From: Planctomycetota bacterium
Lineage (GTDB): Bacteria > Planctomycetota > UBA11346
NCBI GenBank assembly: GCA_041641915.1
Contig: JBEPXK010000001.1
Coordinates: forward strand, 1-26,344
Reading direction: 5' to 3'
DNA length: 26,344 nucleotides
Both the position numbers and the translations under genes were made by a program. Shown here piece after piece: positions 5,204 to 21,756 of the stretch (its first letter is position 1; each line of letters starts with the position of its first letter). A model generated the notes under the pieces. The model was not told the origin of the DNA, searched no databases, and saw only the letters and a list, made by a program, of their open reading frames with translations.

Positions 5204-7396
5204 TCAGCCAGCATCGGCGCGGCGCGGCGCGACCGGGCGCTTGCGACGCGGCCACAGCGCCCGGCATCGCCGTACAAGCGCCTCCGTGATCCGCTGACGA
5301 TGGCGCACCCACGGGCCGGCGGCGGCGACCACCACCAGGCCCAGGAGCGCGGCGTGGGCGGCGCAGATCGAGCCCAGCATCACCTCGCCCATCGCCCCTG
5401 CGCGCACCGGCTTGGCTCCGCCGCCGCTGCCGCCCGCGGCCTCGGCGATGAGGTAGGCGCGACCCAGCCCCGCGAGCAGCACGGTCAACAACCAGGCGCT
5501 ACCATCGCCCAGTGGCGTGAGCCAGCCCCCTGCACGGCCGTGATCGACCTCGCGCAGACCGGCAAAGAGCACTGGCAACAGCGCCACCCACGCCACTGGA
5601 GCCACCAAAGCGAGCCAGGGCATGCCGAACACCGCGTACACGGTGGCACCGAGGGCCAACGCCGACCAGGCCAGCGTGGCAGGCTCGAAACGCCGCCCGG
5701 CCGCCTCGTGCACCCGCACCACCCATATCGCCTGCAAGGCGAGGACCACCACCGGGATCCGCGCCAGCGAACGCAGGGCGAGCAGCAGATGGTCGTGGTC
5801 GAAGAGGATGTGCACCGCGAACGGGTCCTTGCGCGGGATCCACCAGGCCAGGTAGGCACAGGTACCCAACGCCGCGGCAGCGAGCACCGGCCAACGCGCG
5901 CTGCCGCTACCGACCAGATTGGCCACCAGCACCGCGACCCCCGCCGCCATCACAGCCTCGCTCCAGGCATCGCCCGTGCCGCCGTAGAAGGGACGCAGCA
6001 CGGCCAGGATCACGAAACCGGTCGGCAGGACCCAGATCATCCCGAGTTCTCGGTACCGCACGAAGGGGTAGAGCAGGGCCAATCCACCCGCGCCGCAGGA
6101 GAGCGCCAGTAGCGGCGGAGCCCCCAAGGCCCAAGTGGCCAGGGCCAGCAGGGTCGAAACCAGGACGGCGCCGAACGCGCTATGCGCAAGCATGCTCGCG
6201 GCGAGCGGCGCCACCAGCACCACCAGCACCGGCAGGACCCAGCCGGTGGTCAGATGCGGCCAGGTGGGATAGCTCAGGCTCAGCAAAGCGAGCGGCACCA
6301 GGTGCGAGGTCCGCAAGCCGCGGCGGCCGACGTCCACCACCGCCTCGGAGACCTGGGTGCGGACGGTCCGCCAGACCTCGCTCACCGGTCGATCACCGGG
6401 GACGGTCAGCGGCTCGACCCGCGGCAGGCTGGGCGTTCCCGGCTGCGCCTGCCCCCCGGCGATGCGGCCGGCGACCAGCAGCAGCAGGCAGATCGCGGCG
6501 CCGCCGGCAAGGGTGCTCAGCGCATGGCCGGCACCGGCCGGCACCAACAGCGCGACCACGGCCGCGACCACCGCGAAACCGAGCAGGCGCTCGGCGCTGA
6601 GCCACAGCTGCCCCCCCTGCGGCACGGTGCACAGCAGGCCAAGCACGCCACCGCCAGCCAGAATGAGGGCGGCCTGCATGCTCAGGTCCAGCACGGCCGG
6701 ACGGCCGCCGGGCCAGGGGCCGGTGGCCAGCGCGAGCAGCGTCAGCAGGGTCGCGAGCAGGAGGCCCGCCCCCACCGGCCAGAGGAAGGAGCGCCGGGCA
6801 CGCAGAACCGGCGGCAACAGATGGATCAGAGCGAGCCCGAACAGCAGCGCGGGACCGGCCCGTCCGAGGTCCGCGAGGGTCGGCGCCCGCAACGGCGAGC
6901 CCCCGGCGCCGGGGCCGAGCAGCAGCACCAGCGCCACACACCACACCAAACCTCCGCCGAGCAGCACCGGGCGTCCGTGCATCAGCAGCGGCAGCAGCGA
7001 CCACGGCAACAAGGACCAGGCAAGGATCTGCCGCGTTGGCGCCCCCCACAGCAACTCGGCGGTCGCCGCGAGCGGGAGCACGGTCACCACGGCGATGGTC
7101 AGCTGCAGCCGATCGCCAAGCGCGAGGCCAACGTAGGCCATGGCCAGCGCGGTGACGATCAGCGCCTGGCCGGGGCCGAACTGGACGGTGATCGACATCG
7201 CCAGCACCACCAGACCGCTGATGACGACGGCGAGCAGACCGAGGGCCCAGCGCGGCAGACGGGCAAACAGACTCCATACGCCGAGCGCCAAGCCGGTGGT
7301 CGCCAATGCGAACAGGCCGGTGCCCGGATGATCGCTGTGCACCAGCTGGGCCAGCATCGCGAGTGTCGCCAGAGCGTAAGCGGCCGCAGCGAACAT
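5204..7396 (-). CDS. Polytopic membrane protein of unknown function (730 aa, roughly 20 hydrophobic segments by eye)
   Basis: Nearly continuous Ala/Leu/Gly/Val hydrophobic segments. Start moved from 7564 to ATG 7396 (GGGGAGAG RBS; the upstream frame is Arg/Pro-rich and overlaps the divergent gene). Confidence 0.75.
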   Translation of the reverse strand: MFAAAAYALATLAMLAQLVHSDHPGTGLFALATTGLALGVWSLFARLPRWALGLLAVVISGLVVLAMSITVQFGPGQALIVTALAMAYVGLALGDRLQLTIAVVTVLPLAATAELLWGAPTRQILAWSLLPWSLLPLLMHGRPVLLGGGLVWCVALVLLLGPGAGGSPLRAPTLADLGRAGPALLFGLALIHLLPPVLRARRSFLWPVGAGLLLATLLTLLALATGPWPGGRPAVLDLSMQAALILAGGGVLGLLCTVPQGGQLWLSAERLLGFAVVAAVVALLVPAGAGHALSTLAGGAAICLLLLVAGRIAGGQAQPGTPSLPRVEPLTVPGDRPVSEVWRTVRTQVSEAVVDVGRRGLRTSHLVPLALLSLSYPTWPHLTTGWVLPVLVVLVAPLAASMLAHSAFGAVLVSTLLALATWALGAPPLLALSCGAGGLALLYPFVRYRELGMIWVLPTGFVILAVLRPFYGGTGDAWSEAVMAAGVAVLVANLVGSGSARWPVLAAAALGTCAYLAWWIPRKDPFAVHILFDHDHLLLALRSLARIPVVVLALQAIWVVRVHEAAGRRFEPATLAWSALALGATVYAVFGMPWLALVAPVAWVALLPVLFAGLREVDHGRAGGWLTPLGDGSAWLLTVLLAGLGRAYLIAEAAGGSGGGAKPVRAGAMGEVMLGSICAAHAALLGLVVVAAAGPWVRHRQRITEALVRRCRALWPRRKRPVAPRRADAG

Positions 7397-7542
7397 CGCT
7401 CTCCCCCGGTAGCACCGGCGCAGCCTGACCGGGCCCAGCCCATCGCGGACCGCGAGCCGACGCCCCCGGTCCAGCATCGGCCCCGAGCGGGGAGGCTTGA
7501 GCTCGGGCTTGGCGCGCCTCTTGCTTCCATCGCGAGGATTCC

Positions 7543-10257
7543 TTGGTAGACGTGCGCCCCGCAATGCAGGAGCACCAACAGCAGGCGAGTAATCGACCGG
7601 ACGCCCCAGGCGATCAGGCCGATGCCCCCCCGTCGGAAGGCCGACGGCAACGGTGCTTCACCCTCCGGGCGCTGACGCTCGGGGCGGTCCTGACCGTGGT
7701 CTTCGCCCTGATCACCCCCTGGAACGACTGGTTCCTCGAGAACACCTCGCTCTATCTCCACTATCTGCCGCCGGCGGTGCTGCTGGTCATCCTGGTCATG
7801 GTGCTGGTGGTCAATCCCCTGCTCGGCCGACGCCGGTTCGCGCAGGGAGAACTGGTGGTGGTGGTGGCGATGCTGCTGGCCCTCGGCGGCGTGGTCAGCA
7901 GCGGCCTGGTCCGCTACCTGCCCGGCATGATCACCCTGCCCGCGACCCGGCTCAAACCGGGCGGCACCTACGAACGACTGCGCGAACCGCTCGGTCCGGA
8001 GGACCAGGCCGCCGCGCGCGCGCGCTTTGAGCGCCACCTCGCACGCCGTTTCGCACGGCTGGATGCCGACGGCAACGATACACTCAGCCCCAACGAACTC
8101 GGCGACGCCAACGCGCTCGCCACCGCCGACAGCGACAACGATGGCGCCGTGTCGCTGCCCGAGTACCGCGCCCACATCCTGCAGCAGGATCCGGACGCCC
8201 TGCCCGACGCCCGCTGGGCGCTGCCGCACGAGCTCTTCCTCGGCATCCCCCCGGTGGGCACGATCGCGCGTGACGATCCCGAATACCGCTACGTGGTCGA
8301 AGGCTACCTCAACGGCCTCGCCACCGCCGCCCAGGACGACGTGCGCCACCGTGCGCGCGTCACCTGGACCGAAGACGGCCAGCGCAATCAGGGCGAGGCG
8401 CTCGCCGGGCGCACGGCGATCGACCGCGGCATCGCCGGCGACACCGGCTTCCTCGATCTGGAGACCAGCCGGGTCGGCCAGGCGCTGCGCGGGCTCGAAC
8501 CGGGCGACCGGACCACGGTGGATACCGGGCGCAGCCACACCGCTGGGCCCGGCGAGACCGTGGGCGCGATCGCCCAGCGCTATTACGGCGACCCGGCCGC
8601 GGCCCCGGCGCTGCGCGCGGCAAATCCGCAGCTCGGCCCGGACGCGCAACCGGCACCGGGCACCACGCTCACCGTGCCGGTCCGGCTCACGGTCGAGGCG
8701 GTCGCGGATCCGCCCACGCCCTATTGGGCCTGGGTGGACCCGCTGCTGGCCTGGGCGCCGCTGCTGCTCGGCGCCTTCATCGCATCGATCGCCACGGCCT
8801 TCGTCCTCCGCCGCCAATGGATCCACCACGAACGCCTGCCCTACCCCATCGGCCAGGTGATGCTCTCCCTGCTCGAGCCGGCGCCACCGCGTCGCTCGTT
8901 CAACGCGCTGTTCACCAACCACGGCTTCTGGGCCGGCTTCGTGATCGTCTTCCTGCTGGTGTTGTGGAACGGCCTGGCGCGCTGGGGCCTGGTCGAGGTC
9001 GGCTTCCAGACGGTGTTCGACTTCTATAACGGTCCCGACGCTCCGTTCCAGGGCAGCCCCTGGCGTCAGGCCTACCGTCCGGCATTCCTCTTCATCCCCC
9101 GGATCTCCTTCAGCATCATCGCCCTGACCTTCTTCCTCGCGCTCGACCTCAGCTTCAGCCTGTGGTTCGCCTTCGTCGCGATCAACATCCTGTTCCTCGT
9201 CTCCTACAGCAGCGGAATCCCGCTGCACAAGGCGGACGTGCAGCAGGCGGGCGTCGGCGGCTACGCGGTGATGTGTCTGCTGATCCTCTGGCTGGGGCGC
9301 TCCCACTACCTCGCCCTGTTGCGCGCGGCCTTCACCGGACGCGGCGACGAACAGACGCGGCGTACCGTCCCGTACGTCTGGGCGCTGATCATCGGCGCCG
9401 TGACCATGGTCCTTGCCCTGGTCAGCTACGGGGCGGGGCCCGGCGCGAGCACCCTGGCGGTGCTGCTGTTCCTCGGTTTCATGCTGGTGGTCAGCCGGAT
9501 CGTGGCCGAAACCGGGATCCCCTTCATCCAGGTGCCGAACGAATGGACCGTCAACAGCGTGCTCTTCAGCGCGGTGGGCTTCAGCATGCCCCCCTCGGCG
9601 CTGATGCCGCTGACCCTCATCGGCATCAGCCTGATGGCCGACACCCGCGAATCGCTGATGCCCTACGCGGTCCAGACCTCGTATCTCGCCGACCACAGCG
9701 GAGCACCACCACGCCGCACCGGTGCAGTCATGCTGGTGGTCGTCTGCATCGGGATGCTGATCGCCGGCGCCTCGATGCTACGCCATGCCTACAGCGGCGA
9801 CGGACCCAAAGACACCAGCTGGCCCGGCTATCTGCTCGAGACCCAGGCCTTGAAGAAGGTCGCCGGTGGCATCCGGACCGAGGAACGTGCCGCGACCGAC
9901 CACGCCGCCCACGCCCACCAGGAACGCCAACAGCAACGCACCTGGACCGCCTACGGTGCCGGCGCCGGTCTGGTCGCCACGCTCGGCGTGCTGCGGATGT
10001 TCTTCGCTTGGTGGCCGCTGCATCCGATCGGCTTCCTCGCCGCCACCTCCTACCCCGCCTGGCTGATGTGGTTCAGCTTCCTGCTCGGCTGGGCATGGAA
10101 GGCGGGGGTGATGCGCTATGGCGGCTCCGGCGCTTATCATCGGCTCAAGGCGGTGGCCATCGGCATGATCGCCGGCGAGATGACCGCGCTGATCCTCTTC
10201 ATCATACTCAAGATCGCCAACCCGGACCGTCTCGGCGCCCTACGGATCCTCGGATGA
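7543..10257 (+). CDS. DUF6785/DUF6784-like multi-TM membrane protein with inserted EF-hand pair, GreA-C-like and LysM domains
   Basis: N-terminal FTLRALTLGAVL...LPPAVLL...NPLL...GELVVV and C-terminal WWPLHPIG...WFSFLLGWAWKAGVMRYGG...Y recall DUF6785/DUF6784. EF loops at 8062-8097 and 8128-8163; LysM at 8536-8679. Start is TTG 7543 (GAGGA upstream) or ATG 7564. Confidence 0.75.
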   Translation: MVDVRPAMQEHQQQASNRPDAPGDQADAPPSEGRRQRCFTLRALTLGAVLTVVFALITPWNDWFLENTSLYLHYLPPAVLLVILVMVLVVNPLLGRRRFAQGELVVVVAMLLALGGVVSSGLVRYLPGMITLPATRLKPGGTYERLREPLGPEDQAAARARFERHLARRFARLDADGNDTLSPNELGDANALATADSDNDGAVSLPEYRAHILQQDPDALPDARWALPHELFLGIPPVGTIARDDPEYRYVVEGYLNGLATAAQDDVRHRARVTWTEDGQRNQGEALAGRTAIDRGIAGDTGFLDLETSRVGQALRGLEPGDRTTVDTGRSHTAGPGETVGAIAQRYYGDPAAAPALRAANPQLGPDAQPAPGTTLTVPVRLTVEAVADPPTPYWAWVDPLLAWAPLLLGAFIASIATAFVLRRQWIHHERLPYPIGQVMLSLLEPAPPRRSFNALFTNHGFWAGFVIVFLLVLWNGLARWGLVEVGFQTVFDFYNGPDAPFQGSPWRQAYRPAFLFIPRISFSIIALTFFLALDLSFSLWFAFVAINILFLVSYSSGIPLHKADVQQAGVGGYAVMCLLILWLGRSHYLALLRAAFTGRGDEQTRRTVPYVWALIIGAVTMVLALVSYGAGPGASTLAVLLFLGFMLVVSRIVAETGIPFIQVPNEWTVNSVLFSAVGFSMPPSALMPLTLIGISLMADTRESLMPYAVQTSYLADHSGAPPRRTGAVMLVVVCIGMLIAGASMLRHAYSGDGPKDTSWPGYLLETQALKKVAGGIRTEERAATDHAAHAHQERQQQRTWTAYGAGAGLVATLGVLRMFFAWWPLHPIGFLAATSYPAWLMWFSFLLGWAWKAGVMRYGGSGAYHRLKAVAIGMIAGEMTALILFIILKIANPDRLGALRILG

Positions 10258-11156
10258 ACGACCAGCCCAGCCGCCTCTTCGCCATCCACGGATTCTACTT
10301 CCGCATTCCCGCCACCTGGGAGCTGCGGGTGAACAAGGGCTACTGGGGCAACGGCTATGAGATGTTCATCGATCATCGCACGCCGACGCTCAACCTGACC
10401 TGGGAGCGCTTCAGCCGCACCCCGGACTACGACCGCACGGTCACGCGCATGGCCAAGCGCGCAACCCAACACAGCGACCTCAAGCTCACGCGTACCGACC
10501 CGCTCACCGGCACGCGTCAGGGCCGACGCGTGCGCCTGGAGGGCAGCGAAGGCGTGTTCCACGCCGCAGTGGTCCGGCCCGATCCGGACGTGAATCTGGT
10601 GCTGGTCATCCGCCAGATGCTCCCCGGTTCGGCGCTGCCGCTCAACCGCCTGATCGATAGCGTCAAGGCGCTGGGCGAAGACGCGCCCACCCCCTGGCGC
10701 TTCCACGGCCTGGCCCTGGACCTGCCGCCGTGGTGGCGCCTGCACGGGACCGAACACATGGTCGGGCTGACGCGTGCGGTCTGGTTCCATCGCCCCAAGA
10801 ACCGCCTCAAGACCGCCGGCGTGCTGGTATTACGGCGCTATGCCTGCGCCAGCCGCATCCTGCGCGAAACCACCATCGATCAGTGGGTCGAGGAGCGGCT
10901 GGAGAAGCGCGAGACAATGCGCCAACGCGCGTACGCCTCGGACGGTACCTTCTCCGCCATCGCGGACGCCCCGGGGCTTTCGCCATGGCGACGCCTGCGT
11001 GGCGTGCGCGAAGAACGGCATCTGGCCGCTTGGATCGAAGAAGGGGAAGACCGGCTCGTGATACAGGAATGGAAGGGAGCGGGACCGCCACTGCCGCTCT
11101 TGCGTTATCCGCAAGACCCCGAGGATGGTGCGCTTCCGCGAATGGAGAATACCTAG
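10254..11156 (+). CDS. Hypothetical 300-aa soluble protein with two PsbP/DcrB-like repeats
   Basis: ATGA overlap with the upstream gene (true start inside track ORF 9162..11156). Internal repeat LFAIHGFYFRIPATWEL / WRFHGLALDLPPWWRL; no signal peptide or TM seen. Confidence 0.75.
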   Translation: MNDQPSRLFAIHGFYFRIPATWELRVNKGYWGNGYEMFIDHRTPTLNLTWERFSRTPDYDRTVTRMAKRATQHSDLKLTRTDPLTGTRQGRRVRLEGSEGVFHAAVVRPDPDVNLVLVIRQMLPGSALPLNRLIDSVKALGEDAPTPWRFHGLALDLPPWWRLHGTEHMVGLTRAVWFHRPKNRLKTAGVLVLRRYACASRILRETTIDQWVEERLEKRETMRQRAYASDGTFSAIADAPGLSPWRRLRGVREERHLAAWIEEGEDRLVIQEWKGAGPPLPLLRYPQDPEDGALPRMENT

Positions 11157-11530
11157 TGTCCAACCCGGCGCGACTGGACGCCGAAACCGTCGCCGAGGCG
11201 GTCCCCCGATTGCGGGAGGATGTCACCGTCTCGCAGGCCCCGGATGGGGCGATCCGCCTGCGTAGCGCCGAGCTCCGTCGCACCCGGCTCGGATCGGTGT
11301 TGGCCTGGTTGTTCCGCCTGCCCCTGCGGATCGAAGTCGAGCTGGACGAGATCGGTAGTTGGGTCGTCGCCCGGATGGATGGGCGATCGATGCAGGATAT
11401 CGCCACCGATCTCGCCGCCGACCGCAAGCTCACACTGCGTGAAGCCGAAGCCGCACTGACCGTTTTCGTCCAGTCGCTGCTCGCCCGGCGGCTCCTCACG
11501 CTCGAAGGGTTGATCAGGAGTTGTGCATGA
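11156..11530 (+). CDS. PqqD-family (RiPP recognition element, RRE) protein, 124 aa
   Basis: GTG 11156 overlaps the upstream TAG; GGAG RBS. VELDEIGSWVVARMDGRSMQDIATDLAADRKLTLREAEAALTVFVQSLLARRLL matches the PqqD pattern (LDxxGxxIWxxxDGxxTVxEI...L...L). Confidence 0.85.
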   Translation: MSNPARLDAETVAEAVPRLREDVTVSQAPDGAIRLRSAELRRTRLGSVLAWLFRLPLRIEVELDEIGSWVVARMDGRSMQDIATDLAADRKLTLREAEAALTVFVQSLLARRLLTLEGLIRSCA

Positions 11531-13167
11531 CCGAGATGCCCGAAGACATCGCCAAACGCAAGCTGGCCATGCTGGGCAAGCCGCCGATCCTGCCACTGAG
11601 CGTCCCGGCGCGCGTCGCCTGGGGATCGATCCGCATCCGTCTCTCCCGCAGCCTGGTGACCGTCTCGTCGGTCATCCTCGCCGTGGCCTTTCTGCTCGTG
11701 GTGCTCGGTGAAAGCCTCAGCACCACCGCGGTCTACCACACCTACAAGCGCCAGAACCGGCCGTTGGAGCGGGTGCAGACCCTGCACGCGGTGCTCGAAC
11801 GCCCCCGCAAGCGCATCGAACTGCTGCGGCTGCTCGCCGAGCAACCCGATCAGACGCGCTCCTGGCTCGCGAGCCACGACCTCGACCTGCCGCCGGCCTA
11901 CGAACCGCGTCATGCCGTCGCCCTGCTGACCCTGGCCGAATGGGCCAACGAACTCCAGCCCATCGCCCGCTACAAGATGCTCGGCAATCGCGATACCGCC
12001 GACTGGCTGTTCTCGCTGACCAGCGCAGAGCGCACCGAACAGGTGATCGCCAAGGCCCGCACCATCAACAGCCGGGCGCTGCCCTTCGGCCAGGTCGAGC
12101 TGGCCAACCTCAGCGAGAAGGTGCCGCTGGTCGAACAGGCGGTAGCAGCCGCAGTCACGGTCGAACGCGCGCGTCATCGCACCGTGCAGGAAGCCGGCGG
12201 CTCGAAAGCGGTCCTGCGCGAGCTGCGCGACCAGGGCGACCGGGAAGCGGTGGCGGCCATGGGCCTGCCGCTGCACCAGGTCCTGCCCGAGCTCGACCAG
12301 GCGGGCATGCGCGAGTTGCGCAACGAACTGGCCTTTGAGCCCTTGCGCGACCAGGCGCAGGAGATCGTCGCCACCATCAACCGGGTGTTCTCGCGCCTGC
12401 GCCCGTTGGGCATCCTCGCCCTGGCCAACGAGGACCTGCTGCAGGAAGGCGAGGGCTACGCCGCCGAGCTGCGCGAGCTGCTTGGGGAGCAAACGGCAAA
12501 CCAGGCCATCGCCGCCCTGGTCGAGGAACGCAGCCTGAAGCCCCTGCAACAGGCGCTCACCCAAGCAGAGGATGACGAGAACGCGCGCAAGACCATCGAT
12601 GTGGGCATCTCGGCCGAAGCCCGCTCGCTGCTGCTGTGGAAGCTGGCCGACCAGTTGACTGCAGAAGAACGCGAGCAGCTCGAAGCCTTCCTCGCCGAAC
12701 ACCGCGCGCTGTTCAACCTGCGTGATACCTTCCTCGATATCGGCTTCGATCCCGAGGGCACCCAAGAGAAGACCTTCTGGCTGCTGGTGCTTTCGATGCT
12801 CGTGTGCATCGTCGGGATCGTCAATTCGATGATGATGGCGGTGACCGAGCGTTTCCTCGAGATCGCGACCATGAAATGCCTCGGGGCGATGGACAGCTTC
12901 ATCCTCAAGGCCTTCCTGATCGAATCGGGCACCGTCGGCCTGGCCGGCAGCGTCCTCGGCGCCGTGCTCGGCGTGGGCATCGTGCTGGTCCAGGCCTCGG
13001 CCCGCTTCGGCAGCATCTACTGGGCCAGTTTCCCCGCCGCCGACCTCGCCAAGGCCGCCGGCGCCGCGCTGGTGACCGGTCTGGTCCTGACCATCGTCGG
13101 CGCGCTGCTCCCGGCCTACAAGGCTGCGCGCATGCACCCCATCGAAGCAATGAGATTGGAAGCCTGA
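11527..13167 (+). CDS. MacB/FtsX-type ABC permease
   Basis: ATGA overlap. N-terminal RLSRSLVTVSSVILAVAFL TM, about 350-aa helical loop, FtsX domain VGIVNSMMMAVTERFLEIATMKCLGA...FLIESGTVGLAGSVLG with 3 TMs. Confidence 0.9.
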   Translation: MTEMPEDIAKRKLAMLGKPPILPLSVPARVAWGSIRIRLSRSLVTVSSVILAVAFLLVVLGESLSTTAVYHTYKRQNRPLERVQTLHAVLERPRKRIELLRLLAEQPDQTRSWLASHDLDLPPAYEPRHAVALLTLAEWANELQPIARYKMLGNRDTADWLFSLTSAERTEQVIAKARTINSRALPFGQVELANLSEKVPLVEQAVAAAVTVERARHRTVQEAGGSKAVLRELRDQGDREAVAAMGLPLHQVLPELDQAGMRELRNELAFEPLRDQAQEIVATINRVFSRLRPLGILALANEDLLQEGEGYAAELRELLGEQTANQAIAALVEERSLKPLQQALTQAEDDENARKTIDVGISAEARSLLLWKLADQLTAEEREQLEAFLAEHRALFNLRDTFLDIGFDPEGTQEKTFWLLVLSMLVCIVGIVNSMMMAVTERFLEIATMKCLGAMDSFILKAFLIESGTVGLAGSVLGAVLGVGIVLVQASARFGSIYWASFPAADLAKAAGAALVTGLVLTIVGALLPAYKAARMHPIEAMRLEA

Positions 13168-13174
13168 CCAACCG

Positions 13175-16100
13175 ATGCGCCATATCCGACATCTGCCCCG
13201 TCTCTGCTGCCTCCTGCTCGTCGCCACCGCCGCCACCGCGGTCGAACCGGCGCTCAGCCCCGACCTCGAGCGGGTCCGTGCGCATGCCGAGGCCCTCCTC
13301 GCCATCCCCGATCGCTCCATGGGCTCGCCCGGCGCCGATGCCGCCGCCGATCTCATCCGCGAGCGCCTCGACGCCCTCGGACTGGAGGCCGATCGCATAC
13401 GCGAGGCCCGGACCACGGTCACCGTCCCGGTCGATCACGGCAGTTCGCTGCGCGTCGCCGCCGAGGGCGGTGAGACCATCATCCAGCTCGCGCCGCATGT
13501 TCCCAATGGCGCAGCACTCAACACCACCGGCGGCGAGCCGATCACCGGCCCGCTGGTGATCCTCGGTCGTGGCGACGCCGCGGCGCTGCGCGCCCACGGC
13601 AAGGATTTGCCAGGCAGCATCGTGGTGCTCGATGGCGATTCCGGCGACGCCTGGCTCGACTGTGCCGAAATGGGCGCCCTGGCGGTCATCTTCCGCAAGA
13701 GCGAACGCATCGACCACCATCAGCTCACGCAGCAGTTCGTCACCGCCAGCCTCTCCTTCCCCCGCTTCGTCGGCGAAATCGACGACGCGCTCCAGGGCGC
13801 CGAGGCGACGCTGACCAGCACCGTGACCATGGAACGGCGCAACGTGCGCACCCTCTGCGCCCTGATCGAAGGCGAGATCGGCCAGCACACCGCGGTCCTC
13901 GCCAGCGGGTACGAAGCCGCTGGCCTGATCCCCGGCCACGATCCCGCCGCGACCCGCGCCTGGAACGCCGCGCTCCTGCTCGAACTCGGACGCCAATTCG
14001 CGGAGCATCCGCCACGCAACAACATCCTGCTGGTATTCCACGGCGGACGGGCCGAGCACTTCCGCGGTCTGCGCATGCTGCTCGCCAGCCTCAACGATCC
14101 GGCCCTGAGCCAGAACGAGAACACCACCGCGATCGAGGCCAAGCGCCTCGCACTGGATATCTGGCGTACCGAACAGGTCCGCCGGGCCTTCACCGCATTC
14201 CTCGACCAGACCGACGAAGCCTCGCCCGAAACCATCACCATCGCCAAACTCGAGGAATTGCTGCGCGCGATCAACGAGGATACCCTCGAACCCTTCCTCG
14301 AGGAGGACGAGCCGCAGGCGACCACCGCCACGATACCGGAAGCCGATGCCAAGCAGGTGCGTCGCGGGGTGGTCAATCGCATCCTGGCGGTGTTCTTCAC
14401 CGCCGGCCTGATGCTGGTGTTTTTCATCCGTTGGCGGACCGGCCGGCCGGGCTGGTTCCTGCTCACGGCGATCGCCATCGGCGGCGGACTGGTCATCTAC
14501 CAGCTGGTCGCACCGGTCGAACCGGAAACGATCGTGACCGAAGTGGCCGAGGAGCGCAAACAGGTCGAGGACCTCGGGCTCGCCTTCCTCTCCGAGGAGG
14601 CCGGTCGCCGGGCCGACCAGGAACAACCGGTGGTCGAACGTCTGCGCCTCTACACCAAACTGACCGAGAAACAGAAGGTCAGCGCGGAGAACCGGCTGCA
14701 GAGACTGCTGTTGCAGGAAGAACTCGAAGCCCTGCGCGGCGAGGCCCTGCCCAGCGACCGGGAGCGACTCGTGAAGCTGACCGCCGACCTCGGCGACCAC
14801 ATCCAGTTGATGCGCGACGTGCAGCAGAAGCTGGGCAAGATGGAGCTCAACGACCGCGAGGCCGCGGTGGTCCGCCCGATGATCCTCGATCTGCTCGGCG
14901 ATTCGGACGAGGCCGACACGATCATCGGCAGCCACCTGCGCACGCTGCGTCTGCGCCACCGCGACCTCCAGGATGCGCTCGCGATCCAAGAGATGGTCGG
15001 CCCGGGCCGCACCGCCCTACTGATCGGCTTCGACCTGACCGACGGCAACTGCGCCTTCTCCGCCGCGGTGCTCGGCTCGATCGCCGCCGCCGCCAAGAAG
15101 CTGACCTGGATCGGCAACGAGTGCCAGCGGGTGGCCCATGATCTGGACACCGATCACCTCGACGGCGCGCTCGCTTTCGACCCCTCCCCCTACGGCCAGC
15201 ACCACGGCAGCCCCACGGCGTGGTGGCCGCAATTCTACGCGCACGAGGCCGGCGTCGCCAACCTCTACCTCAACGCGCTGACCCTCTCGACGGTCAACGA
15301 CAAGCGCGCCAAGATCGGCACGCCCCAGGACACCGCCGCCGCCTTCGATACCGGAACCGGCGAGGGTCCGGGATATTTCGCCCGTCAGACCCGGGGCCTG
15401 ACCGCCCTGGTGCGCGACCTGGTCGAAAACACCAATTACACCAGCAAACGCCTCGACCTGGTCAAGAAGGGCCTGGCCTGGAAGACGGTCGAAATGCAGA
15501 CCGAGAGCCGCGGCAGCGCCACCGGCCTCAAGGGCTTCCCCTTCGGTGAGCTCCACGTCCAGGAAGGCCCGGCGCTGGGCTACTTCCCCGACGTGCGCCC
15601 GGTGCAGATCTTCTGGACCGACGCCTTCGGCAAGGTCACCGTCCCCTGGCTGCCGAACCAGCTCAACGAACCCAACCCCGGTACCTGGGCGCTGCTTCCC
15701 TTCGCCCACGATTCCGTCGGCCGGCTGACCCATGTGCTGACCGTCGGCAAGCAGAAGACCGCCGGGCTCAACGCGCAGGGCTTCGACGTCAAGGGCTCGC
15801 TGCGCGACATGCTCACGCAGGTCTTCGCCTGCCAGACCAGCCAGCTCTACAACCTGACCAATCCGCGTTCGATGATGCCGCTCAACGAGGTCCGGGTGCT
15901 CAGCTCCAGCCGTGACGCCCCACCCGATGCGAGCTATTTCGAGAGCGACGGCCAGGTCGCTGCCGTGTTCGCGACCAAGGGCACCCGCCTGCGCATCATC
16001 GCCCGCCAGGGCTCCGTCGGCCGCGAATACCTCCTGCTCGGCGACCACGAACAGGGCGACGAATTCCTCGGCCTGCGTCCCGGTGGCCCGTTGAACTCGG

Positions 16101-18928
16101 TGCTGGCACGCACGCTGCGCCCCAGCGTCGATCCCACCGCCGCGGCCGGGCAGACGGCCCAACCCGATCCCGCGCCGGAGGCCGACAGCGACGAGGAGCA
16201 ACCGGAGGCGAGCGACGGGCCGGCCGTGGCCGATCTGCCCGCGACCGCCGATAAAGACGCCATCCCGCTGGTGCTGGCCGAGCGCGCTGCTGCCCCTGCG
16301 GCCCTGGCGGTCGCCCAGGACTTCTTCCAGATCTGCCGCGCGCGGCTGGAGCGGCTGCAGCGCTTCGGGATCAACCCAGAGAGCCTGTGGGCGCTGCACG
16401 CCAAGGCCCAGTCCGAGCTCGACGAGGCCAAGCGGCTGCTCAAGGCCGGCGACGTCCAAGGCGCCGAAGGCGCAGCCGAGGCCGCCTGGTCGCTTGAGAA
16501 CCGGGTCTATCCCGCCCTGCTGGCAACCGCCAACGACGTGGTCTACGGCCTGGTGGTGATGCTGATTCTGGCCATCCCTTTCAGCATGATCTGCGAACGC
16601 CTGTTCGTCAGCGGCAACACCATTTTCACCAAGGTCGCGGGCTTCGGCGCCTTCTTCGTTGCCACCTTCCTGTTCTTCTTCTTCTTCCATCCCGCCTTCA
16701 GCCTGGCGGTGACGCCGATCATCATCTTCCTCGCCTTCGTGATCATCGTGATGAGCGTATTGGTGATCGGGATCATCTACCGCCAGTTCGAGGCCAGCAT
16801 GACCCAGATGCGCATGCAGGGGCTGGGCATGCACCGGGCCGACGTCAACCGTCTGGGCACCCTGCTGGCCACCGGTCAACTCGGCATCAGCAACATGCGC
16901 CGGCGTCCGTTGCGCACCTTCCTCACCGCAACCACCGTGGTGCTGATGACCTTCATCCTGCTGACCTTCGCCGGTTTCGGCAGCAAGGCTGGGATCCGCC
17001 AGCAGGACCTCGAGGTCGCGCCGGCCTACAACGGCATTTTCCTCTCGCAGCCCGGCTGGCTGCCCTTCGCCGAGAACAGCGTGGATCGCACCGTCAACAC
17101 CTGGGACCGCGACCTGCACGTCTTCCCCCGGCGATGGCTGATGGCCGGCGTCGACGTCCCCCGCTTCGATATCAACCACCCCGAGGGCGACGAACCGACC
17201 TCGCTCATGGGTGTGGTCGGCGTCGATCCCGGCGACCCCTCGGGCGCCGAACGCTCCGCCCTGCGCGTGTGGTTCGAAGACGGCGAACGTCACACCGCCA
17301 CCGGTTTCGCGAGCGACGAGGACTGGATCTTCCTGCCCCAGCGCCTGATCGACAACTCGGGCTATCGCGAGGGCGATAGCATCCCCTTCCAGGGCCAGCG
17401 CCTGCGCCTCGGCGTGCTGCAACAGACTGGCGACGATGCTTTCACCAAAGTCACCCATCTCGACGGCAGCCCCTTCACCCCGCTGGCGCCCGAGGCGATG
17501 GACGAGGAACAGCGCAAGCACTTCCAGGAGATGAAGAAGCAGGCGGCCGAAGGCGGCGAGGTGGTGGTCGAATCAACTTCGCTGACCCACCTCGATGCCG
17601 ATCAGGTCGCCCTGACCTCCAATGCGGTGCTCGCGCGACTGGGAGCCGAAATCCGTTCGATCGCGATGGTGCCGTGGACGGATGCAGCCCGCCAACAGCA
17701 GCGCGATCCCGAGCGACATCTGCCCGCCGAGCTCGCCGATCTCGACGAACTCGGCGCCGAGGTCACCAATCAGCTCGCACTCAGCGTCCTGCTCGGCAAC
17801 AAGGGCAAGACGCATCGGATGACCGCGGTCGGCCAGCTGGCCATCGGCGGTCTGGCCGACGTGCTCATCCCGCTGATTCTCGGCGGCATGATCATCTATT
17901 CGACCATGCTCGGATCGGTGGCCGAACGTGGGAAGGAGATCTTCATCTACTCCTCGCTCGGTCTGGCTCCGATCCATATCGCGGCGCTGTTCCTGGTCGA
18001 GGCGACCATCTACGCGGTGATCGGTGGCATGGGCGGATACATCGTCGCGCAGATGCTCATCGCCTTGCTCGGCTTCCTCGCCGATGTCGGGCTGCTCGCG
18101 ACCCAGCCCGACATCAACTATTCGAGCTTCACCGCGGTGATCACCATCCTGCTGGTCATGGCCACGGTCCTGCTCTCAGCGCTCTACCCGGCCTTCGTCG
18201 CCTCGCGGGCGGCCAATCCCGGCACCGAGCGCCGCTTCCGCGTTCCGCAACCCGACGGTGACGACCTCGACATCGAATTCCCGTTCACCGTCGCCGCGCG
18301 CGATATCCGCGGTCTGCTCGCCTACCTGAAGACCTTCATGGATGCCAACACCGAAGCCTCGACCGGCTGCTTCACCGCCGCCGATGCCGAGATGGTCGCC
18401 GATGGCGACATCTTCGCCGTGCTGGCCAGGACCTGGCTGGCGCCGTTCGATCTCGGCATCAGCCAGACCTTCCGCATGACCGCCAAGCCGACGGACATGA
18501 AGGCCATCTACAGTATCCACATCTCGCTGCATCTGCTCTCCGGCCAGCGCAGTGCCTGGCGTCGGGTGACCATCCCCTTCATCCAGGAGCTGCGGCAGCA
18601 GTTCCTGGTCTGGCGGACCCTCGATGAGCAGACCACCGATCGCTACCGCGCCGCCGGTGGCGACCCCGATGCCGCGCAGCGGGTGGCCGAACATGAGCGC
18701 GAGGCCGCAGTCCAACGGGTCCAGGCCGAGAAGGACATGAAACACCACCATCGCCGCGGCGGGCCGGAAACCAAACCGGCCGCAGACGACGCGGAACAGC
18801 CCGAAGACAAGCCGGCAGCACACAAGGTCGAAGGGGTCGCCGACACCGACGACGCGGCGCCTCCACAAGCAGCGCCACCCCCCGAGGAGGTCGAAGGTGA
18901 TGAGCAGCGCAAAGGAGGGCGGTCATGA
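13175..18928 (+). CDS. 1917-aa fusion: signal peptide, degenerate M28 peptidase/PA-like region, extra TMs, MacB/FtsX permease, C-terminal cytoplasmic domain
   Basis: Sec signal MRHIRHLPRLCCLLLVATAATA. M28-like scaffold around AVLASGYE, NAALLLELGR, ILLVFHGG, IGFDLTDG, GTPQDT. MacB TM1 ISNMRRRPLRTFLTATTVVL; FtsX YSTMLGSVAERGKEIFIYSSLGL...FLVEATIYAVIGG. Confidence 0.85.
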   Translation: MRHIRHLPRLCCLLLVATAATAVEPALSPDLERVRAHAEALLAIPDRSMGSPGADAAADLIRERLDALGLEADRIREARTTVTVPVDHGSSLRVAAEGGETIIQLAPHVPNGAALNTTGGEPITGPLVILGRGDAAALRAHGKDLPGSIVVLDGDSGDAWLDCAEMGALAVIFRKSERIDHHQLTQQFVTASLSFPRFVGEIDDALQGAEATLTSTVTMERRNVRTLCALIEGEIGQHTAVLASGYEAAGLIPGHDPAATRAWNAALLLELGRQFAEHPPRNNILLVFHGGRAEHFRGLRMLLASLNDPALSQNENTTAIEAKRLALDIWRTEQVRRAFTAFLDQTDEASPETITIAKLEELLRAINEDTLEPFLEEDEPQATTATIPEADAKQVRRGVVNRILAVFFTAGLMLVFFIRWRTGRPGWFLLTAIAIGGGLVIYQLVAPVEPETIVTEVAEERKQVEDLGLAFLSEEAGRRADQEQPVVERLRLYTKLTEKQKVSAENRLQRLLLQEELEALRGEALPSDRERLVKLTADLGDHIQLMRDVQQKLGKMELNDREAAVVRPMILDLLGDSDEADTIIGSHLRTLRLRHRDLQDALAIQEMVGPGRTALLIGFDLTDGNCAFSAAVLGSIAAAAKKLTWIGNECQRVAHDLDTDHLDGALAFDPSPYGQHHGSPTAWWPQFYAHEAGVANLYLNALTLSTVNDKRAKIGTPQDTAAAFDTGTGEGPGYFARQTRGLTALVRDLVENTNYTSKRLDLVKKGLAWKTVEMQTESRGSATGLKGFPFGELHVQEGPALGYFPDVRPVQIFWTDAFGKVTVPWLPNQLNEPNPGTWALLPFAHDSVGRLTHVLTVGKQKTAGLNAQGFDVKGSLRDMLTQVFACQTSQLYNLTNPRSMMPLNEVRVLSSSRDAPPDASYFESDGQVAAVFATKGTRLRIIARQGSVGREYLLLGDHEQGDEFLGLRPGGPLNSVLARTLRPSVDPTAAAGQTAQPDPAPEADSDEEQPEASDGPAVADLPATADKDAIPLVLAERAAAPAALAVAQDFFQICRARLERLQRFGINPESLWALHAKAQSELDEAKRLLKAGDVQGAEGAAEAAWSLENRVYPALLATANDVVYGLVVMLILAIPFSMICERLFVSGNTIFTKVAGFGAFFVATFLFFFFFHPAFSLAVTPIIIFLAFVIIVMSVLVIGIIYRQFEASMTQMRMQGLGMHRADVNRLGTLLATGQLGISNMRRRPLRTFLTATTVVLMTFILLTFAGFGSKAGIRQQDLEVAPAYNGIFLSQPGWLPFAENSVDRTVNTWDRDLHVFPRRWLMAGVDVPRFDINHPEGDEPTSLMGVVGVDPGDPSGAERSALRVWFEDGERHTATGFASDEDWIFLPQRLIDNSGYREGDSIPFQGQRLRLGVLQQTGDDAFTKVTHLDGSPFTPLAPEAMDEEQRKHFQEMKKQAAEGGEVVVESTSLTHLDADQVALTSNAVLARLGAEIRSIAMVPWTDAARQQQRDPERHLPAELADLDELGAEVTNQLALSVLLGNKGKTHRMTAVGQLAIGGLADVLIPLILGGMIIYSTMLGSVAERGKEIFIYSSLGLAPIHIAALFLVEATIYAVIGGMGGYIVAQMLIALLGFLADVGLLATQPDINYSSFTAVITILLVMATVLLSALYPAFVASRAANPGTERRFRVPQPDGDDLDIEFPFTVAARDIRGLLAYLKTFMDANTEASTGCFTAADAEMVADGDIFAVLARTWLAPFDLGISQTFRMTAKPTDMKAIYSIHISLHLLSGQRSAWRRVTIPFIQELRQQFLVWRTLDEQTTDRYRAAGGDPDAAQRVAEHEREAAVQRVQAEKDMKHHHRRGGPETKPAADDAEQPEDKPAAHKVEGVADTDDAAPPQAAPPPEEVEGDEQRKGGRS

Positions 18929-20922
18929 GCAAGGCCCTCGCTGATAAGGAACTCAACCAATATCGCGACCTCATCCAGCCACCGGGCTATTTCGAGGAGG
19001 GCTTCACCTGGCGCACATTGCTGGGCACCGTCTTCGTCGGCGTGGTCATGCTGCCGGCGGCGATGTACATGCACCTGATGATCGGCAGCATCAGCCTGGC
19101 CCCCGCGGCCAAGTGGGTGACGGTCATCCTGTTCCTCGAGATCGCCAAGCGCGCCCGCAGCTTCCTCAAGCCGGCCGAGCTGCTGGTGTTGATGAGCCTG
19201 ATCACTGCCTTTGTCGGCACCACGCCGATCGAGGGTTTCTTCTGGAAACAGTACGTCGTCCAAAGCGATGCGGCCCGATCATTCGGGCTTGAAGGCTTGT
19301 TCCCAGACTGGTACGCGCCGACGAGCGAAGAGGTGCTCGATCGGCGGTCGTTCTTCCAGGCGGAATGGGTGTTGCCGATCGTGCTGATCTTCCTGCAGCA
19401 GGCGATCGGACGCGCCGACAGTCTGATCCTCGGTTACGGCTTGTTCCGCCTTACCAGCGACGTGGAGAAGCTCCCCTTCCCCATGGCCCCCCTCCAGGCT
19501 TCGGGCATCCTCGCACTCTCCGAGGACACCACCGCCAAGGATGGCTGGCGCTGGCGCTGCTTCTCGATCAGCGCCTCGATCGGTATGATCTTCGGCCTGC
19601 TCTACATCGCCATTCCCACGATCACCAGCACCTTCCTCGATGAACCGTTCCAGATATTCCCCATCCCCTGGTTGGATACGACCCAGGCGACCCAGGAGGT
19701 GTTGCCGGCGACGGCCACGGGCATCAGTTTCGATCTGAGCAACTTCTTCTTCGGCATGGCCTTCCCGTTCTTCGCCGTGCTCGGCAGCTTCATCGGGCTG
19801 CTGGTGACCTTCATCGCCAACCCCGCGCTGCACGACGCCGGCATCCTGCATACTTGGAAGCCGGGCATGAGCACAGTCGAAACCATGTTCGCCGACAACA
19901 TGGACTTCTACCTCTCCTTCGGTATCGGCCTCTCGGCGGCGGTGGCGGTGATCGGCTTGGCCCAGACCTTCGGCAAGGTGCGCAAGGCCAAGGCACGCGG
20001 GCCGACCCTCGACGTGGCCGAGAAGCCGAAGGTGACCAAGGTCCAGGGCGTCTCGCGCGGGGACATCCGCACCGTGACCATTCTCCTCGCCTACCTCGTC
20101 TCCTGCAGCGCCTACATCGTGATCAGTGGCGTGTTGCTCGACTGGGATTTCGGCGGTGGCGGCGCCCTGCTCTGGGTCCTGCTGTTCTTCGCCTTCATCT
20201 ACGTCCCCTTCATCAGCTACACCACCGCCCGTCTCGAAGGCCTCGCCGGCCAGGTCATCGCGCTACCGATGGTCAAGGAGGCGGCGTTCATCCTCTCCGG
20301 CTATCAGGGCATCCAGTGCTGGCTGCTACCGATCAGCTGGCACCACAACTACGGCATCGACACGGTGCAATACCGCGTTGCCGAACTGGTCGGCTGTTCC
20401 TTCCGTTCGATCTGGAAGGCCAAGGCGGTGCTGTTGCCGACGGTGTTCCTGTTCTCGCTGATCTACGGTCAGTTCATCTGGAGCCTCGGCCCGATTCCCA
20501 GCGCCAAGTACCCCTTCGCCCAGGAGATGTGGGATCTGCACGCCCGCAACCAGATCCTGATCTGGACCTCGACCATGGGCGGCTACAGCCCCTTCATGGA
20601 CGCCATCAACGGCTTCTACATCGCCGCTGGCGGCGTCATGGGGTTGGTGGTCTACACCACCCTGTCCGCCTTCGGCCTGCCGATGCTGCTGCTCTACGGC
20701 ACGGTCAAGGGACTGGGGCAGACGCTGCCGCAGATGGTGGTGACCCAGATGCTCGGTGCGCTGTTCGGGCGCTTCGTCATGGCCAAGAAGTTCGGCCCCG
20801 ACCGCTGGCGTCAGTACGCCATCGTCCTCTCGGCCGGCTTCGGCTGCGGCACCGGACTGATCATGATGTTCTCCACCGGCGTGCGTTTCCTCGCGTCCGC
20901 CGTCTACCAGAAACCGTTCTGA
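18925..20922 (+). CDS. OPT/YSL-like multi-TM putative peptide transporter
   Basis: ATGA overlap. Many TM segments; FEEGFTWRTLLGTVFVGVVMLPAAMY and EKLPFPMAP recall OPT-superfamily patterns (FTxRA..., LPFP). Confidence 0.7.
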   Translation: MSKALADKELNQYRDLIQPPGYFEEGFTWRTLLGTVFVGVVMLPAAMYMHLMIGSISLAPAAKWVTVILFLEIAKRARSFLKPAELLVLMSLITAFVGTTPIEGFFWKQYVVQSDAARSFGLEGLFPDWYAPTSEEVLDRRSFFQAEWVLPIVLIFLQQAIGRADSLILGYGLFRLTSDVEKLPFPMAPLQASGILALSEDTTAKDGWRWRCFSISASIGMIFGLLYIAIPTITSTFLDEPFQIFPIPWLDTTQATQEVLPATATGISFDLSNFFFGMAFPFFAVLGSFIGLLVTFIANPALHDAGILHTWKPGMSTVETMFADNMDFYLSFGIGLSAAVAVIGLAQTFGKVRKAKARGPTLDVAEKPKVTKVQGVSRGDIRTVTILLAYLVSCSAYIVISGVLLDWDFGGGGALLWVLLFFAFIYVPFISYTTARLEGLAGQVIALPMVKEAAFILSGYQGIQCWLLPISWHHNYGIDTVQYRVAELVGCSFRSIWKAKAVLLPTVFLFSLIYGQFIWSLGPIPSAKYPFAQEMWDLHARNQILIWTSTMGGYSPFMDAINGFYIAAGGVMGLVVYTTLSAFGLPMLLLYGTVKGLGQTLPQMVVTQMLGALFGRFVMAKKFGPDRWRQYAIVLSAGFGCGTGLIMMFSTGVRFLASAVYQKPF

Positions 20923-20943
20923 GTCCAGCAGGGATCGATTGAC

Positions 20944-21756
20944 ATGACCGAAGACACCCACGACCCGCAGGCGATCTACCAGACCTACTGGGACCCGGAG
21001 CACGTTTCCGACCACGGCGACTATGCTCGGGGCAAGGAAGTCATCGTCCGCGCCCGCGATGTGAAGAAAATCTACAAGGCGGAGACCGACAACCCGGTGC
21101 ACGCCCTGCGCGGGATCACGATGGAGATCTACACCGGCGAATACCTCGCCATCATGGGTCCCTCCGGCTCGGGCAAGTCGACCTTCTTCAATGCCATCGG
21201 CGGTCTGGACAAGCCCACCTCCGGGCAGGTCTACATCGACGAGGTCGACATCGCCCAGCTCGACCCCAAAGAGCTGGCCTGGCTGCGGTGCCGCAAAATC
21301 GGCTACATCTTCCAGAGCTACAACCTGATCACGGTGATGACGGCGATGGAAAACATCATGTTGCCGATGACCTTCGCCGCGACCCCCGCCGACGAGGCAC
21401 GCGAGAAGGCTTTCGAGCTCTGCCGCCTGGTCGGCATCGACCACCGCGCCGACAACAAGCCGGCCGAACTCTCCGGTGGTCAGCAGCAGCGCGTGGCCAT
21501 CGCCCGCGCGTTGGCCAACGACCCGGCTATCATCCTCGCCGACGAGCCGACCGCTAACCTCGACTTCCGCACCGGCAAGGAGATCATCGAGCTGATGGTC
21601 AAGCTCAAGCAGGAGAAAGGCGTGACCGTGATCTCCGCGACCCACGACCACGAGATGCTCGCCATTTCCGATCGGATCATGTGGATCCGCGACGGTCAGG
21701 TCGATCGGGTCGAGTTGCAGAAGGACCTCAAGATCCAGAAGGGCAGCATCGAGTAG
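20944..21756 (+). CDS. ABC ATPase, LolD/MacB/FtsE type
   Basis: Walker A GPSGSGKST, Q-loop GYIFQSYNL, signature LSGGQQQRVAIARAL, Walker B ILADEPT, H-loop SATHD. Confidence 0.95.
   Translation: MTEDTHDPQAIYQTYWDPEHVSDHGDYARGKEVIVRARDVKKIYKAETDNPVHALRGITMEIYTGEYLAIMGPSGSGKSTFFNAIGGLDKPTSGQVYIDEVDIAQLDPKELAWLRCRKIGYIFQSYNLITVMTAMENIMLPMTFAATPADEAREKAFELCRLVGIDHRADNKPAELSGGQQQRVAIARALANDPAIILADEPTANLDFRTGKEIIELMVKLKQEKGVTVISATHDHEMLAISDRIMWIRDGQVDRVELQKDLKIQKGSIE

Follow-up and report, generated by a model that had tools for sequence, protein, structure and literature searches.

The 26,344-nucleotide stretch of Planctomycetota contig JBEPXK010000001.1 analysed here (the window) encodes, at 7564..10257 on the forward strand, a polytopic membrane protein of the families DUF6785 and DUF6784 whose membrane body is interrupted by a soluble insert of about 270 residues. 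Within this insert, modelling and structure searches recover three folds, namely a compact EF-hand pair, a beta domain resembling the C-terminal domain of GreA/GreB, and a LysM domain nested inside that beta domain, while the membrane body itself is predicted to adopt the OPT/YSL fold. Taking the models at face value, we tentatively propose that the insert is a genuine ectodomain, assembled in steps on an inner-membrane protein of the OPT/YSL fold, and that it possibly acts as a periplasmic, Ca2+-binding, wall-docking module.

The gene was delimited from the list of open reading frames (ORFs) and from Pfam. Its product counts 897 residues from the ATG at 7564 and is identical to entry P0003 of the protein collection; the open frame itself (7543-10257, +) begins earlier, at a TTG at 7543, which would give 904 residues. 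Both family assignments lie well above their curated cut-offs (DUF6785, PF20581: 240 bits against 25; DUF6784, PF20580: 80.5 bits against 26.4), and neither DUF6785 nor DUF6784 is named in any indexed paper. The insert breaks the DUF6785 match between profile positions ~114 and 139, and positions 139-495 resume at residue 392. Loop length, charge and the model together place the entire soluble, predicted periplasmic insert at 7912..8721 (+; residues 117-386). Its GreA-like and LysM parts are without annotation from any tool applied here. A first-pass annotation made from the letters of the window had pointed to an insert built of EF-hand, GreA-C-like and LysM elements, and all of its coordinates proved exact and in frame.

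Modelled on its own with AlphaFold2 (residues 116-386, alignment of 48 sequences), the insert reaches a predicted local distance difference test score (pLDDT) of 94.3 and a predicted template modelling score (pTM) of 0.84. Structural searches with this model, performed all-against-all with a library of 48,161 PDB representatives and with Foldseek against the PDB and the AlphaFold DB clusters, retrieved the EF-hand, the GreA C-domain and LysM, the same three folds that had been suggested from sequence. On the basis of the model, we class all three parts as fold-level relatives, the GreA-like part being a remote relative below Pfam grade. The conserved EF-hand loops, the recovered folds and the direct strand junctions of LysM-less homologues, all described below, put these features beyond chance.

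The first part of the beta domain occupies 8278..8520 (+) and comprises the helix PEYRYVVEGYLNGL, an HR..V.W strand and an LDL...G..L.G...GD motif. Its last strand, VRLTVEAVA, resumes after the LysM at 8680..8706 (+; model strand 258-266), the first-pass annotation having listed VRLTVEAV at 8680-8703. E. coli GreA (1grj_A) was the top structural match among the PDB representatives (Z 10.0, root-mean-square deviation (rmsd) 2.1 Å, 74 residues aligned), with model residues 128-268 aligning to residues 75-158 of the GreA C-terminal domain and thereby spanning the LysM. Other matches include 9a7t_B (Z 10.1), Rnk 3bmb_B (Z 8.1) and GreB 2p4v_A (Z 7.7), and entries of GreA, Gfh1, GreB and Rnk rank top in both Foldseek searches. 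The resemblance extends to profiles: a profile of the beta domain alone gave five matches at E <= 10 in PDB sequences, all of them GreA-family C-domains (Rnk at 0.1, Gfh1 at 0.37-1), PF01272 (GreA_GreB) weakly matched 12 of the 48 family inserts (best E 3.7e-4), and hhalign aligned the domain in the same register with the canonical GreA that the genome also encodes (P 9.3e-4). The window sequence itself gave no match to PF01272 at E <= 1 and thus falls short of the curated cut-off of 26.9 bits. The GreA/GreB likeness noticed in the first-pass annotation is therefore borne out at the level of the predicted fold.

In comparison with the C-terminal domains of GreA, GreB, Gfh1 and Rnk, the window domain shares the fold across its whole length and keeps the G..L.G...GD motif in the same register, but it is without the N-terminal coiled coil, is predicted to be periplasmic, is interrupted by the LysM and bears a family-specific HR..V.W motif. 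A Gre N-terminal domain was not found by Pfam, and the EF-hand pair and a connector precede the beta domain instead. That connector, WALPHELFLGIPPVG...DDPE (8206..8277, +), is seen in alignments to be common to all members of the clade carrying the beta domain. Foldseek did superpose the EF-hand helices on the N-terminal coiled coil of GreA, but at an rmsd of 13-16 Å, and we do not count this as a real match. The identity of a Gre transcript-cleavage factor was rejected, given the missing coiled coil and the predicted periplasmic location. A search for stand-alone donors of the beta domain, using the beta-only profile on 5.8 billion proteins and candidates of 52-165 residues, returned none at E <= 0.01.

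The nested LysM lies at 8521..8679 (+; Pfam match 8536-8679) and is delimited by Pfam, structural matching, profiles and the junctions seen in homologues. Submitted as the insert alone, it scores exactly at the cut-off of the Pfam LysM family (PF01476, 20.9 bits against 20.9), and within the whole protein it scores 18.2 bits; five of the 48 family inserts match at E <= 1, the best at 5.3e-5. Solved LysM domains, with their two strands flanking two helices, superpose on model residues 204-260 with Z 7.1-7.6 and rmsd 1.4-1.9 Å over 48-49 residues at 31-33% identity (4xcm_B, Z 7.6; 4uz2_A, Z 7.4; 5k2l_A, Z 7.1). A profile of the insert run against 1.84 billion cluster representatives retrieved multi-EF-hand and multi-LysM proteins, both kinds being confirmed by Pfam. 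Support for the nesting comes from homologues that lack the LysM (P0005, P0015, P0016 and others), in which the flanking strands are joined directly with clean junctions (...G--xxxVxAV...). As the GreA structural alignment also runs across the LysM, the earlier suggestion that the LysM is inserted before the last beta strand holds. Compared with the LysM domains of peptidoglycan hydrolases (T. thermophilus NlpC/P60, 4xcm/4uz2) and of Kbp/YgaU, the window domain has the same fold, 31% identity and the G-E-T...IA...Y...N...G..L.VP pattern, but it is present as a single copy, inside another domain and in a loop of a polytopic membrane protein.

The compact EF-hand pair (7990..8205, +) is supported by its loops, by a calmodulin profile match, by structural matches and by Pfam on homologues. 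The two 12-residue loops, DADGNDTLSPNE (8062-8097, +) and DSDNDGAVSLPE (8128-8163, +), carry ligands at positions 1, 3, 5 and 12 and are just 10 residues apart; their 22-residue start-to-start spacing is kept in about 15 homologues, in agreement with the two EF-hand loops called initially. EF-hand lobes of calmodulin and troponin match residues 28-99 of the predicted model with Z 8-9.7 and rmsd 1.2-2.3 Å over 56-69 residues, the insert profile finds calmodulins among PDB sequences at E 1e-9, and Pfam EF-hand models match 14-18 of the 48 family inserts (best E 1.2e-8). For the window sequence the EF-hand scores amount to ~21 bits against curated cut-offs of 25-30. The pair resembles the compact bacterial EF-hand pairs of LanM and XopAW in its canonical 12-residue loops separated by 10 residues, in weak NCBIfam matches and in a structural match to LanM (8fns, Z 7.5). 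LanM, however, has four EF loops with Pro at loop position 2, whereas the window protein has two loops, neither with Pro at that position. Lanmodulin identity (NF053806) was rejected on these grounds and on a score of 27.1-29.6 bits against a cut-off of 135.

The distribution of the three parts suggests how the insert was assembled. The loop measures ~55-60 residues in basal members, ~140 with the beta domain, ~220 with the EF-hands added and ~272 with the LysM as well. In a tree built from the membrane body alone, the beta-domain carriers form one clade (38 rows, Shimodaira-Hasegawa-like approximate likelihood ratio test support 100) with one secondary loss, in P0043, so that the beta domain appears to have a single origin at the base of this clade, within one Planctomycetota family. 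The EF-hands and the LysM are patchily distributed inside the clade; the EF-hand pair was either gained on the N-terminal side of the beta domain by some lineages or acquired by an early ancestor and later lost. The window protein is sister to the LysM-less form P0005 with support 100, and a genome of a sister genus (G273; L012, L013) has a pair of paralogues, of which one combines all three parts and the other lacks the LysM. In an even sample of the phylum (401 Planctomycetota genomes, 12 first-look candidates scored per genome), the beta domain turned up in five genomes, every one a member of the GTDB family of the window (4 of 23 besides the genome of the window itself). The full architecture occurs also in another genome of the same genus, and, among the matches listed from the 1.84 billion, at least three cluster representatives span the nested profile in full; the best 150 of that search are mostly multi-EF-hand and multi-LysM repeat proteins, with family members only in the highest rows. 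The full architecture is thus lineage-specific and rare, and shared beyond the window genome; it is not common in the family, in line with the structural reading of the first-pass annotation.

The loop that carries the insert holds unrelated inserts in other DUF6785 members and is thus a hot spot for insertions. A paralogue in the same genome (P0207, 978 residues; L007:368-3301, minus strand, contig C18) has an unrelated insert of ~325 residues without a Pfam match in the same loop, and P0050 has yet another of ~185 residues. The 'B' label of P0050 in the tree is an alignment artefact, its 185-residue insert being unrelated to the beta domain.

To place the insert within the whole protein, we turned to the AlphaFold2 model of the full chain (alignment with 64 homologues; pLDDT 93.5, pTM 0.91). 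The only significant solved match of this predicted model is barley Yellow Stripe 1 (YS1), found by Foldseek at E 2.8e-6 and probability 1.00; the superposition on 7wsr_A gives Z 23.1 and rmsd 3.9 Å with 542 of 600 residues aligned, and is collinear from model residues 29-887 to chain residues 46-666. We consider this match specific because no structural homologues of YS1 turned up when its structure was described (PMC9691689). On the strength of the model, we assign DUF6785/DUF6784 as a predicted OPT/YSL-fold family. The likeness is confined to structure: the whole protein gave no match to Pfam OPT at E <= 1, and the DUF6785 family profile run against PDB sequences did not match YS1 and returned two chance xylanase matches only. 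Relative to OPT/YSL transporters (barley YS1, PDB 7wsr/7wst), the entire membrane body is collinear and a discontinuous helix precedes the insert, whereas the window protein shows no sequence-level match to YS1, the aligned ranges leave YS1 no space for a 270-residue ectodomain at the insert position, and the window gene is located in an ATP-binding cassette (ABC)/FtsX operon.

Both the charge pattern and the YS1 comparison bear on the orientation of the insert. Hydropathy places helices at residues 32-50, 70-88 and 98-116, followed by the insert and a helix at 397-415. The membrane helix preceding the insert (7843..7917, +; residues 94-118, from hydropathy and model secondary structure) runs in-to-out, is interrupted at GG and has an RRR-rich loop upstream, while the long helix after the insert (8722..8829, +; residues 387-422, from hydropathy, model and charge) runs out-to-in and leads into RRQWIHHERLPYP. 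Across 64 homologues, the density of lysine plus arginine along the N-tail, loops and insert is 0.158, 0.029, 0.244, 0.091 (insert) and 0.150, an alternation that, by the positive-inside rule, marks a protein with its N-terminus inside and the insert outside; the Arg-rich ends of both flanking helices lie opposite to the insert side throughout the family. In YS1, TM1 and H1 form a helical hairpin, which is followed by TM2, a discontinuous helix, by TM3 and by the arm helix H3; a disulfide ties the TM4-H4 loop to the C-terminal strand, and a title in the reference list of the YS1 paper calls one YS1 loop extracellular (PMC9691689). The helix preceding the insert may correspond to the discontinuous TM2 of YS1, and with a C-terminal offset of ~221 residues Cys250 of YS1 would fall at the end of model helix 453-474, which would put residue 386 on the same outer side; this mapping derives from aligned ranges, not from a residue-level alignment. 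The loop named in that title is presumably the TM6-TM7 loop of YS1. The periplasmic orientation first deduced from transmembrane parity is thus consistent with the family-wide positive-inside pattern and with collinearity to YS1, in which the disulfide-bonded TM4-H4 loop marks the outside, and we regard the insert as very probably periplasmic.

The DUF6785 gene is the first of an operon that is conserved in relatives (L001, L002). It is followed by genes for a 298-residue protein, a PqqD-like protein, an FtsX permease, a 1,917-residue FtsX protein, a 665-residue membrane protein and an ABC ATPase, the conserved downstream genes spanning 10260-21756. A DUF6785 member without the beta domain (L010) is already linked to a giant protein with Pfam Peptidase_M28 and FtsX, and a basal DUF6785 member stands alone. 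As a separate observation, the 665-residue membrane protein (18925-20922) has no Pfam match and gives a faint hhalign match to the DUF6785 profile around ERLPYP (P 0.005); it may be a very remote paralogue with the same fold.

In the mechanism we tentatively favour, the GreA/GreB C-terminal-like beta domain would have entered the first large loop on the outer side in a single event, the compact EF-hand pair would then have been added on its N-terminal side, and in a subset a LysM would have been spliced into the hairpin before its last strand. The EF-hands would bind Ca2+ and make the connection with the membrane helix stiffer, the GreA-like domain would act as a scaffold with no role in transcription, and the LysM would bind a glycan containing N-acetylglucosamine (GlcNAc), most probably the peptidoglycan sacculus. 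Through it, the protein and the MacB-type ABC machine of the same conserved operon would both be docked to the wall. A target for the LysM exists, since the genome encodes penicillin-binding proteins and Mur ligases and peptidoglycan is made by Planctomycetes (PMC4432640, PMC4432595). Of all this, the domain identities (as predictions), the nesting, the restriction to one lineage and the conserved operon are shown, while the periplasmic side, Ca2+ binding, glycan binding and docking are deduced.

Several observations weigh against this proposal, and three of them, the compactness of the module, the optional LysM and the likely hypersaline source, also cast doubt on the Ca2+-sensitive peptidoglycan tether that the first-pass annotation had put forward as a possibility. 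Every fold of the insert is a prediction, the window's own Pfam scores for the insert domains are at or under the curated cut-offs, and position 6 of EF loop 1 is Asp, not Gly. The LysM also resembles the Kbp/Phage_tail_X subtype; as E. coli Kbp is a cytoplasmic K+-binding protein, a LysM fold is no proof of peptidoglycan binding. The pTM values of the whole protein and of the insert (0.91 and 0.84) point to a compact, rigid module packed on the membrane body, which may not reach the sacculus. The LysM is missing in close sisters and in the co-resident paralogue, and would thus be an optional accessory. Finally, the only full match of the DNA is a hypersaline-lake metagenome, possibly its source; such a source can be assumed to be rich in divalent cations, so that the EF-hands would more probably be structural than sensory. 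No RNA data set is listed as containing the DNA.

The compactness that speaks against docking to the wall would suit a substrate-capture lid, in which the insert sits over the outward cavity and the LysM passes soluble GlcNAc ligands, such as muropeptides or chitin oligomers, to the carrier or ABC machine rather than holding the sacculus. The insert emerges between the helices equated with YS1 TM2 and TM3, in the substrate-binding core domain, and the YS1 ligand lies near the extracellular side of that domain. Paralogues with and without the LysM in one genome would fit a tuning of specificity, and the insertion hot spot with its unrelated inserts in other members points the same way. However, no substrate is known for any DUF6785 protein and the YS1 helix mapping comes from aligned ranges only, so we consider a lid unlikely, if well worth weighing.

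The operon, in turn, offers a candidate partner for a protein-docking module. Here the GreA-like domain, with or without EF-hands and LysM, would provide a surface for a periplasmic protein. The obvious candidate is the giant M28-like/FtsX permease of the operon, with its large periplasmic part, and the LysM would be a structural add-on of the kind present in phage baseplate proteins. The linkage of DUF6785 genes with giant FtsX permeases extends to members that lack the beta domain, the GreA C-domain is natively a protein-binding module, and the LysM-like matches include the baseplate proteins 9gtp_P and 8kea_J as well as Pfam Phage_tail_X. Such a role is nonetheless rather doubtful, as the most basal DUF6785 members stand alone and the LysM is 31-33% identical to glycan-binding LysM domains.

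A more elaborate arrangement seems distinctly improbable to us: the module, as an ectodomain on the mobile core domain, could gate an OPT-fold elevator protein and couple the conformational changes of that protein to Ca2+ and to the state of the peptidoglycan, within an undescribed envelope machine of a single family that would comprise two OPT-fold proteins, a MacB-type ABC system and the PqqD-like protein. A cytoplasmic insert, with a GreA-like domain that touches RNA polymerase or some other target in the cytoplasm, is very improbable, for although the characterised relatives of the GreA C-domain are all cytoplasmic and the Kbp-type LysM is too, the Arg-rich ends of the flanking helices lie opposite to the insert family-wide, the YS1 mapping puts the loop on the disulfide-bearing side, the Gre N-terminal coiled coil is missing and the genome already has a canonical GreA.

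If the LysM does bind the wall, as in the docking to peptidoglycan that we propose, an inner-membrane carrier or ABC machine would be physically tied to the peptidoglycan, in a phylum once believed to be wall-less. Apart from function, the uncharacterised DUF6785/DUF6784 families gain a structural annotation, the OPT/YSL fold, from a predicted model. A GreA/GreB-type domain is predicted in an extracytoplasmic setting, and to our knowledge every characterised relative of this domain is cytoplasmic. The insert also offers a clear case of stepwise nesting, of a LysM within a GreA-like domain within a transporter loop, and homologues that naturally have or lack each module can serve as controls already at hand. 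What appears to be new is the arrangement of known folds on an unstudied, predicted OPT-fold family, and we consider the immediate significance moderate because all parts are known folds and the function is a proposal.

Two further observations concern the surroundings of the gene. Upstream, a divergent ORF at 5204-7564 (minus strand) encodes a 786-residue polytopic membrane protein without a Pfam match, and L001 has a similar gene, encoding 847 residues, at the corresponding position. Tandem DUF6785 copies are present in L002 and in genome G227.

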